Source: a virus
Taxonomy: Duplodnaviria > Heunggongvirae > Uroviricota > Caudoviricetes
Strand: one strand, 5' to 3'
IMG/VR virus record: IMGVR_UViG_2675903396_000016
DNA: 4,748 nucleotides
Shown here: positions 1,824 through 1,936 of the stretch, in pieces
How positions within the stretch are numbered: position 1 is the first letter of the stretch
Layout: every line of letters starts with the position of its first letter
The notes under the pieces: model-generated
What the model saw: the letters and a program-made list of their open reading frames with translations, nothing else
What the model was told of the DNA's origin: nothing
Databases searched by the model: none
Translations under genes and position numbers: made by a program

Positions 1824-1850
1824 GGCTGCGCATGGCGCGGCCTTTTTTTT
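1824..1850 (+). terminator. Strong rho-independent terminator upstream of nanS-p
   Basis: 8-bp GC-rich stem GGCUGCGC (1824-1831) pairing GCGCGGCC (1835-1842) with one G-U pair and a 3-5 nt loop, followed by eight T (1843-1850). Confidence 0.6.
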
Positions 1851-1936
1851 ACGACCAGCCACTGGCAGATGGTCATCCTGTGATTTGATTCCGGTTCCGG
1901 CTTTTTAACTCTGTTCCTGTACACGGGAGAAATTCG

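Follow-up and report, generated by a model that had tools for sequence, protein, structure and literature searches.

Why does a strong terminator-like hairpin lie directly upstream of nanS-p, between the late promoter of a lambdoid prophage and the sialate O-acetylesterase gene that this promoter would transcribe? The question is raised by a window of 4,748 nucleotides (the whole stretch of DNA analyzed, from IMG/VR virus record IMGVR_UViG_2675903396_000016), which represents the late region of an O157:H7/O55:H7-group lambdoid prophage. Positions 900-2000 are 99.5 to 99.8% identical to genomes of this group, and positions 1640-1936 are 100% identical to two of them. A preliminary description had proposed that the hairpin acts in series with tR' as a second gate, making nanS-p expression tightly conditional on Q-modified polymerase. 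The genes and signals that surround the hairpin are the following.

107-928, + strand: Q late antiterminator gene, 273 amino acids (open reading frame; Pfam PF03589, E = 4.7e-50)
934-961, + strand: putative PR'-like promoter, TTGATT, 16 nt, (TGg)TAAATT (read directly from the sequence)
1009-1033, + strand: tR'-like terminator, a 7-bp stem (1009-1026) followed by T7 (terminator scan; fold -12.0 kcal/mol, z = -3.1)
1166-1458, + strand: TerB/TciA pseudogene (PGAP "internal stop" in the homologue, alignment, and sequence)
1455-1622, + strand: gene for a DUF3927 (TciB-like) small membrane protein (Pfam PF13064, E = 1.5e-16)
1937-3874, + strand: nanS-p, a SASA-family sialate O-acetylesterase of 645 amino acids with DUF1737, SASA, and DUF6645 (open reading frame, Pfam, and annotations)

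In a genome matching 1640-1936 at 100% identity, the Q gene carries the PGAP label "antitermination protein." The PR'-like promoter scores 8/12, below the threshold of the scan, and its position just after Q agrees with the lambdoid layout (PMC7547250). The TerB/TciA pseudogene has an in-frame TAG (1232-1234) and, relative to O157 strain Z910, a 70-bp deletion after ~1403. Downstream of nanS-p come genes for DUF1378 and DUF826 and then the beginning of a class II holin gene, and the scan for + strand terminators between nanS-p and the holin gene found nothing beyond a weak hairpin.

The element itself is made up as follows.

1824-1842, + strand: terminator hairpin GGCTGCGC-ATG-GCGCGGCC (terminator scan and fold)
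1824-1831, 1832-1834, and 1835-1842, + strand: 5' arm GGCTGCGC, loop ATG, and 3' arm GCGCGGCC of this hairpin (sequence)
1843-1850, + strand: T8 tract, the termination point and presumed Hfq-bound U-tail (sequence)

The 8-bp GC stem and eight T reported earlier are thus confirmed at 1824-1850; the T8 tract ends 86 nt before the nanS-p ATG (1937) and the hairpin starts at -113. The stem has eight pairs (seven G-C and one G-U) closed by a loop of 3 nt, and the T8 tract abuts it with no spacer, as in intrinsic terminators, which combine a G+C-rich stem (~5 to 14 bp, with a loop of 3 to 8 nt) with a U-tract immediately 3' of it. A consensus scan ranks the hairpin first among the 12 terminator-like sites of the window, compared to 4.1 ± 2.1 sites in shuffled sequences. 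Folded alone, it has a predicted free energy of -15.4 kcal/mol and accounts for 98% of the ensemble (z = -3.4), and only one of 200 shuffles folds equally well. It is slightly stronger than the tR'-like terminator (-15.4 versus -12.0 kcal/mol), from which it is separated by 817 nt on the same strand. A strong intrinsic terminator between PR'/tR' and nanS-p on the late-operon strand, as described previously, is therefore genuine, and it is placed as expected for a terminator subject to Q, on the late strand, downstream of PR', and with the Q gene upstream. The minus-strand fold is weaker, at -11.4 kcal/mol (z = -1.6), and GGAAAUAAAGGG stands after it, with no U-tract; because no T-run follows on this strand, the terminator is unidirectional and functions on the + strand only. 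The hairpin occurs in nine distinct variants, in which the changes are one-sided and pair preserving (U-G to U-A or G-C to G-U) or two outer pairs are lost. None of the nine has compensatory, double-sided changes, and a shuffle control was uninformative, so the comparative support for the structure is neutral.

The segment between the terminator and nanS-p is a leader with few distinguishing features.

1851-1936, + strand: nanS-p leader (segment identities and fold)
1889-1900, + strand: two-copy hexamer TTCCGGTTCCGG, inside the leader (sequence match)
1925-1930, + strand: ribosome-binding site GGGAGA, within the leader

The tandem repeat that had been noted between the terminator and the ribosome-binding site, TTCCGGTTCCGG, is present exactly at 1889-1900. 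Exact tandem hexamers number three in the window, compared to 1.2 ± 1.4 in dinucleotide-preserving shuffles, with three or more in 34 of the 200 shuffles, and a repeat search with a seed of 6 returned nothing. Among leaders with matching sequence context, the perfect repeat is present in 34 and TTCCGCTTCCGG in three. The repeat is statistically unremarkable, with neither statistical nor comparative support for a function. No significant structure is predicted in 1851-1945 (fold z = +0.5). The preliminary description had named a transcription start between 1850 and 1936 as the observation that would speak against it; a sigma-70 scan shows no promoter-like site in 1851-1936. We note that the start relevant to the hairpin lies upstream of it and not downstream.

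What lies upstream of the hairpin is a homologue of a described small RNA, and we conclude that the hairpin and T8 tract are very probably the Rho-independent terminator of a known prophage gene for an Hfq-binding sRNA, of the EcOnc04 type, inserted like a moron between tR' and nanS-p. The features of the putative sRNA gene are as follows.

1619-1648, + strand: putative promoter-like site of the sRNA, TTGATT (1619-1624), 18 nt, TAAAAA (1643-1648)
~1656-1850, + strand: sRNA gene of the EcOnc04 type, STnc100/PasD group, ~195 nt (5' end placed by homology, 3' end at the T8 tract)
1630-1796, + strand: match to STnc100 (RF02076), the structured sRNA body (Rfam, 101.6 bits, E = 4e-22)
1797-1823, + strand: U-rich stretch leading into the terminator, with partial pairing in the predicted fold (alignment)

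The closest described relative is EcOnc04 in prophage Sp11 of E. coli O157:H7 Sakai, whose locus has 98% column identity to positions 1609-1945 and, like that of the window, lies between DUF3927 and a nanS-p paralogue (ECs_2189). EcOnc04 was reported with an Hfq CRAC peak in five of five data sets and a Northern band of ~222 nt (Tree et al. 2014, PMC4104026, Table S2), and "homologues" were listed at four ECs genes, ECs2189 included (PMC4104026). The published EcOnc04 Northern probe matches positions 1763-1797 in antisense, except for its last bases as printed. The EcOnc04 coordinates refer to NC_002695.1, and their shift to NC_002695.2, calibrated on AgvB1 and the Stx1 PR'/tR' pair, is +135 nt at 1.94 Mb and at 2.93 Mb and 0 at 0.90 Mb; with the +135-nt shift the Hfq peak corresponds to ~1721-1781, inside the sRNA. 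In the Sp11 copy the hairpin stem is 7 bp long, because its 3' arm is short of one C, and a few other bases differ. The Northern size of EcOnc04 (~222 nt) exceeds the 195 nt predicted for the window sRNA (1656-1850), and for EcOnc13 an estimate of ~187 nt (PMC4104026) compares to 173 nt by RNA-seq; it is plausible, if not proven, that the Northern sizes are systematically overestimated. The EcOnc13 probe as printed (PMC4104026) mismatches the PasD1 sequence of Sp3, and there is some ambiguity in the table.

The body of the sRNA is recognized by the Rfam STnc100 model with 101.6 bits, compared to a gathering score of 47, over model positions 1-206. The 3' hairpin of the model (positions ~165-206) is not matched in the window, where a 24-nt deletion and mismatched pairs are found instead, and the terminator of the window lies outside the match, 28 nt further on. 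Because the match stops 28 nt before the hairpin, Rfam alone fails to tie the hairpin to the sRNA body, and the link is made by comparison of the loci of PasD1 and PasD2 (EcOnc13). These sRNAs of 172 to 173 nt are encoded at 1060260-1060432 (PasD1) and 741157-741328 (PasD2) of NC_011601 (Pearl Mizrahi et al. 2021, PMC8550237, Table S6); they are confirmed by Northern blotting, are Hfq RIL-seq partners of many mRNAs, and show Hfq-dependent stability on Northern blots (PMC8550237). By locus coordinates, both RNAs begin at the G of GCATGG (741157 for PasD2) and end on the final T of the T8 tract (741328 for PasD2; 1060432 for PasD1, position 1433 of fetched locus L005). The PasD probe is antisense to sequences ending in GGCTGCGCATG and TTCTGGCTGCGCATG, which constitute the 5' arm and loop of the hairpin, and the Hfq-binding peak of EcOnc13 in Sp3 spans the stretch just before the stem together with the 5' arm. 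The Pas sRNAs are reported to all end in a 3' stem-loop and poly-U, with PasD and STnc100 sharing ancestry (Zhu, Shabalina and Storz 2026 preprint).

The window agrees with the two PasD loci in its promoter-like region, in the 5' stem GCATGGTGAATCC, in the terminator, and in the 86-nt leader. The 27 bases of hairpin and T8 are identical (27/27) to those of PasD1 of EPEC strain E2348/69 and of Sakai Sp3, and the identity extends to 22 of the 90 fetched loci, these two included; the PasD2 hairpin has a U-A pair where the window has U-G. Identity to the PasD2 locus in E2348/69 PP2 is distributed unevenly, with 87.5% across the promoter and 5' stem, 57.9% in the body, and 94.7% across the terminator and leader (1824-1936). 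PasD2, like the window sRNA, lies directly upstream of a sialate esterase gene, a location also remarked upon elsewhere (Zhu, Shabalina and Storz 2026 preprint). The PasD body, however, is 22 to 23 nt shorter than that of the window sRNA, and the PasD loci score below the Rfam gathering score for STnc100, whereas the window scores above it. The PasD seed UGUGAG, which lies just 5' of the terminator and is complementary to a CUCACA target motif (PMC8550237, Fig. S5), is absent from the window, where the alignment places UUAUCCCUUUAUUUCC at the position occupied by CCUUGUGAGUUCU in PasD. Because this seed is missing, the window sRNA is, on alignment, a relative of PasD and not PasD itself. As comparison with the characterized copies shows at the level of sequence, the homologous RNA ends in the U-tract, is bound by Hfq, and is made in uninduced cultures.

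The arrangement upstream of the sRNA suggests that it is transcribed from its own promoter. In the window, 7 nt separate TAAAAA from G1656, and PasD1 and PasD2 have a like geometry, TTGACT-N18-TAAAAA-N7-G. Among the fetched loci there are 31 distinct contexts upstream of GCATGGTGAATCC, and nearly all have a TTGnnT-like -35 element with a spacer of 17 to 18 nt and a -10 element of the form TAAAAA, TAAAAG, or TAGAAA, located 5 to 7 nt before the G. This geometry is kept although the spacers and flanks vary widely; four contexts, from loci L052 and L053, fit it poorly. The promoter scan did not report the site because it accepts only -10 elements with T as the sixth base. RpoD ChIP-exo signal is reported at the STnc100 copies of Salmonella (PMC10794520). 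Without induction, pasD2 is abundant (baseMean of 11,017; PMC8550237), and in EDL933 most of the 11 STnc100 copies are transcribed, one of them confirmed by Northern blotting. We infer that the window sRNA starts at its own promoter. The position of this 5' end (1656) is taken over from PasD2, whose end derives from RNA-seq coverage rather than dRNA-seq. Because PasD2 is bracketed with the gene upstream of it by Pearl Mizrahi et al. (PMC8550237), it may instead originate by processing or from the 3' UTR of the upstream transcript.

Several further searches of the window were negative. No tRNA genes were found, though the STnc100 body is cloverleaf-like; no AgvB/AsxR partner was matched by Rfam at E < 1; and no PasA sequence is present downstream of nanS-p. 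Pairing of the sRNA with the nanS-p leader was also considered and rejected, with a duplex energy no better than that of shuffled sRNA (83 of 200 shuffles as good).

Intrinsic termination, Hfq binding to the 3' stem-loop and U-tail of sRNAs, and antitermination by lambdoid Q proteins are all established, and together they suggest how the terminator may behave. In a lysogen, sigma-70 polymerase would start at TTGATT-N18-TAAAAA and stop at the hairpin, which would provide the sRNA with its stabilizing 3' stem-loop and Hfq-binding U-tail. By analogy with other lambdoid phages, the terminator would also shield nanS-p and the holin/endolysin genes from both the constitutive transcription of the sRNA and any polymerases escaping tR'. 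Q-modified polymerase starting at PR' would, once the prophage is induced, be expected to ignore this terminator as it does tR', such that nanS-p would be expressed with the late genes. Most of the polymerase that reaches the hairpin in a lysogen probably starts ~190 nt upstream at the sRNA promoter rather than at PR', because a promoter-like site and a 5' end mapped in a homologue both lie between tR' and the hairpin.

The main competitor is the proposal with which we began, that the chief role of the hairpin is to back up tR' as a second terminator in series, so that transcription of nanS-p depends entirely on Q-modified polymerase from PR'. The position of the hairpin on the late strand, downstream of the tR'-like terminator and shortly before nanS-p, is compatible with this proposal, as is the lack of a promoter-like site in the leader. 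Expression data point the same way, with nanS-p (z1466) among the genes most strongly induced by norfloxacin and nanS-p transcripts raised by 1 to 2.4 log with mitomycin C in Stx2a phages (PMC10462455); this induction would be consistent with Q read-through of the terminator. Moreover, a related hairpin is common upstream of nanS-p. In a set of 85 nanS-p loci (80 from IMG/VR, together with reference loci and the window), the hairpin type of the window is present at -112/-113 in 36, a Stx-type relative (AAGGCTGCGC-AACT-GCGCGGCCTT) is present at -120 to -129 in 15, and a hairpin of the general form CTGCGC-loop-GCGYRGYC occurs within 200 nt upstream in 64, including Stx-type loci in which it stands behind an sRNA pair that is already terminated. 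Against the proposal, mapped 3' ends in the PasD homologues place the end of an abundant sRNA at this hairpin, and in lysogens the hairpin would act mainly on a transcript other than that from PR'. Furthermore, in ~10 of the 85 loci the 300 nt upstream of nanS-p contain no strong terminator, which indicates that nanS-p does not need one. In the PasD1 loci of E2348/69 PP4 and Sakai Sp3 the same terminator is retained and nanS-p is deleted, which links the terminator to the sRNA cassette and not to nanS-p. We thus regard a dedicated series gate as unlikely. What survives of the earlier proposal is a real, strong terminator that Q-modified polymerase is expected to read through; what does not is its role as an extra gate, for which the 3' end of the sRNA is to be substituted. 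It is plausible that any "gating" of nanS-p is a side effect of the sRNA terminator and not a new device.

A second alternative, which we consider rather improbable, is that the terminator is leaky, with the sRNA promoter and partial read-through feeding a Q-independent basal level of NanS-p and with the sRNA and nanS-p forming a single moron unit. The terminator and leader do travel together at 94.7% identity while the body has diverged to 58%, reviews describe a growth advantage that NanS-p gives to lysogens on Neu5,9Ac2, and qPCR detects nanS-p transcript without induction in 13 of 14 strains (PMC10462455). However, efficient termination is expected of an 8-bp G+C-rich stem with an immediate U8, basal expression is explained equally well by a subpopulation of spontaneously induced cells, and a leak would risk lysis, given that only the weak hairpin stands between nanS-p and the holin gene. 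We hold it similarly doubtful that the sRNA terminator is leaky in a modulated manner, for example through Hfq or through target pairing beside the stem, with the terminator and 86-nt leader acting as an attenuator that couples the sRNA to nanS-p. If this were true, the sRNA promoter would give lysogens a low, Q-independent level of NanS-p esterase.

The two remaining alternatives fare worse. A regulated attenuator or riboswitch-like leader, in which a signal such as sialic acid would switch the RNA between the hairpin and an antiterminator, is suggested solely by the location of a hairpin in the 5' region of a metabolic gene, and we consider it very improbable: there is no Rfam match to a riboswitch or leader family, the leader structure is not significant, the RNA upstream is a known trans-acting, Hfq-bound sRNA, and the same terminator persists where nanS-p is missing. 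A bidirectional terminator, or one serving a minus-strand open reading frame of 47 amino acids at 1808-1951, is scarcely credible, as the overlapping "hypothetical protein" calls in JLK-2012, E2348/69, Sakai Sp3, and Z910 and a weak Rfam asX2 match (minus strand 1823-1888, 25 bits versus a gathering score of 70) are set against the weaker minus-strand fold with GGAAAUAAAGGG in place of a U-tract, the PGAP flagging of these open reading frames as partial or frameshifted pseudogenes, and a scan with no minus-strand promoter-like site downstream of the hairpin.

The favored reading, a terminator belonging to an sRNA cassette, is not in itself a new finding, because EcOnc04, PasD, and the stem-loop and poly-U ends of the Pas sRNAs are on record. 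Its value is mainly for annotation. The ~230 bp between DUF3927 and nanS-p has no RNA-gene annotation in the records inspected, several of which instead show a minus-strand "hypothetical protein" that is spurious or partial; the gap can now be assigned a complete sRNA gene with experimental support from its homologues. In the record of phage 434, the homologous position is annotated as a terminator. Of 5,426 complete E. coli genomes, 643 carry at least 80% of 1640-1936 and 2,845 carry parts of it. Recognizing the hairpin as an sRNA terminator keeps it from being misread as a new regulatory device, and would explain how a constitutive promoter can lie harmlessly upstream of nanS-p and the lysis genes. 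The modular pattern, in which the promoter and terminator are conserved and the body and seed are swapped, fits published views on the diversification of prophage sRNAs.

The window sRNA can be compared with three further known systems. STnc100 is an sRNA of Salmonella and E. coli prophages, represented by EcOnc27 downstream of stx2B, and shares with the window a multi-helix body closed by GCAUGGUG and CACCAUGC and a location in a lambdoid late region before nanS-p. The Stx-type copies match the whole STnc100 model at 141 to 146 bits and end at their own CCCCTC-TTCG-GAGGGG terminator, converging with AgvB/AsxR, whereas the terminator of the window is of the PasD type. A second parallel is the short PR'-tR' RNA StxS (Sy et al. 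2020, PMC7547250), in which a late-operon intrinsic terminator likewise generates an Hfq-binding sRNA in lysogens. Both tR' and the window terminator are expected to be overridden by Q, but tR' ends the PR' transcript right after the Q-loading site, whereas the window terminator ends an RNA that apparently has its own promoter. Finally, a moron cassette, as Juhala et al. (2000) are cited for it in PMC4104026 and PMC8065619, consists of a promoter, a gene, and a terminator within a phage late operon. The unit described here is moron-like in that it would be self-contained, downstream of PR', and expressed independently of prophage induction, although the cargo of morons is a protein-coding gene and the cargo here is a noncoding RNA.

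By sequence alignment, the small RNA (sRNA) gene that precedes nanS-p on the plus strand (about 1656-1850) is a mosaic relative to the PasD2 locus of E2348/69 PP2 (L004). Between window 1617-1936 and L004 1619-1915, identity reaches 87.5% over promoter plus 5' stem and 94.7% over terminator plus nanS-p leader, but only 57.9% in the sRNA body and the stretch equivalent to the seed. Such a pattern suggests that modules have been exchanged between transcription signals that themselves stayed conserved. In contrast to PasD, the seed UGUGAG is replaced by other sequence in the window sRNA, and since body and seed look swapped, its targets are probably unlike those of PasD.

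The STnc100 body (window 1656-1762) forms a closed multi-helix junction in the Rfam consensus structure, with GCAUGGUG...CACCAUGC enclosing four hairpins. We note that this consensus structure has a tRNA-like look and that the body takes the slot of phage tRNA genes in other prophages; ARAGORN calls no tRNA at 1656-1762. At minus-strand positions 1808-1951, across the terminator and leader, public records place a 'hypothetical protein' that is partial or frameshifted, and those inspected have no RNA gene annotation at these positions; the open reading frame is probably an annotation artefact, presumably because the sRNA gene is unannotated. In some prophages the GCATGGTGAATCC-type sRNA start is repeated in tandem upstream of nanS-p, in two or three copies that each have a promoter-like site of their own, at the following positions in three of the comparison loci:

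L029: 582, 852, and 1113, tandem sRNA starts
L052: 210 and 442, tandem sRNA starts
L053: 212 and 443, tandem sRNA starts

Stx-type prophages have a related hairpin upstream of nanS-p:

-120 to -129 from the nanS-p ATG, plus strand: AAGGCTGCGC-AACT-GCG(C/T)GGCCTT followed by TTT

It is present in L003 (about 3245-3275), L088 (608-634), L019, L041, and other Stx-type loci. The STnc100 RNA of these loci already has its own terminator, separate from the hairpin upstream of nanS-p, and a convergent AgvB-type sRNA lies between the two. For this 'orphan' plus-strand hairpin, an overlap with the promoter region of the sRNA on the minus strand is possible. A TTCCGGA motif is kept in divergent nanS-p leaders (L041, L038, L024, and similar loci) at about -60 to -85 from the ATG. 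Just upstream of it in these leaders is CTGTCATTGTCCTGTAAC, a candidate Pho-box-like element (a Pho box has a pair of CTGTCAT-like heptamers at 11-bp spacing); the motif is absent from the type of nanS-p leader found in the window.

The EcOnc13 probe as printed in the supplementary probe table of Tree et al. 2014 (PMC4104026) has no match to the Sakai Sp3 sequence (L086) under the EcOnc13 Hfq-binding peak, and instead fits sequence that lies upstream of STnc100 in phages of the Stx1 type. Between NC_002695.1 and NC_002695.2 there is also a coordinate offset of +135 nt, measured at the two calibration positions (1.94 Mb and 2.93 Mb) beyond a zero point at 0.90 Mb. This is a trap for any re-use of these tables.

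Further upstream, the TerB/TciA gene (1166-1458) is a pseudogene, with an in-frame TAG at 1232-1234 common to O157 strain Z910 and a 70-bp deletion at about 1403 that Z910 lacks. The matches of the other closest genomes split in two pieces, which suggests that the deletion is missing from these as well.

Directly 3' of the nanS-p stop codon there is an inverted repeat:

3887-3927, minus strand: inverted repeat GCCGCCGG-24 nt-CCGGCGGC

Read on the minus strand, the GCCGCCGG/CCGGCGGC repeat (-20.6 kcal/mol, z = -3.0) runs into U7 (about 3880-3886), and the site is thus convergent and terminator-like. The esterase stop codon is reported as the end point of the long form of PasA in EPEC, and the window contains no PasA sequence. 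The phage 434 record has a minus-strand terminator annotated at the position equivalent to the 3887-3927 repeat.
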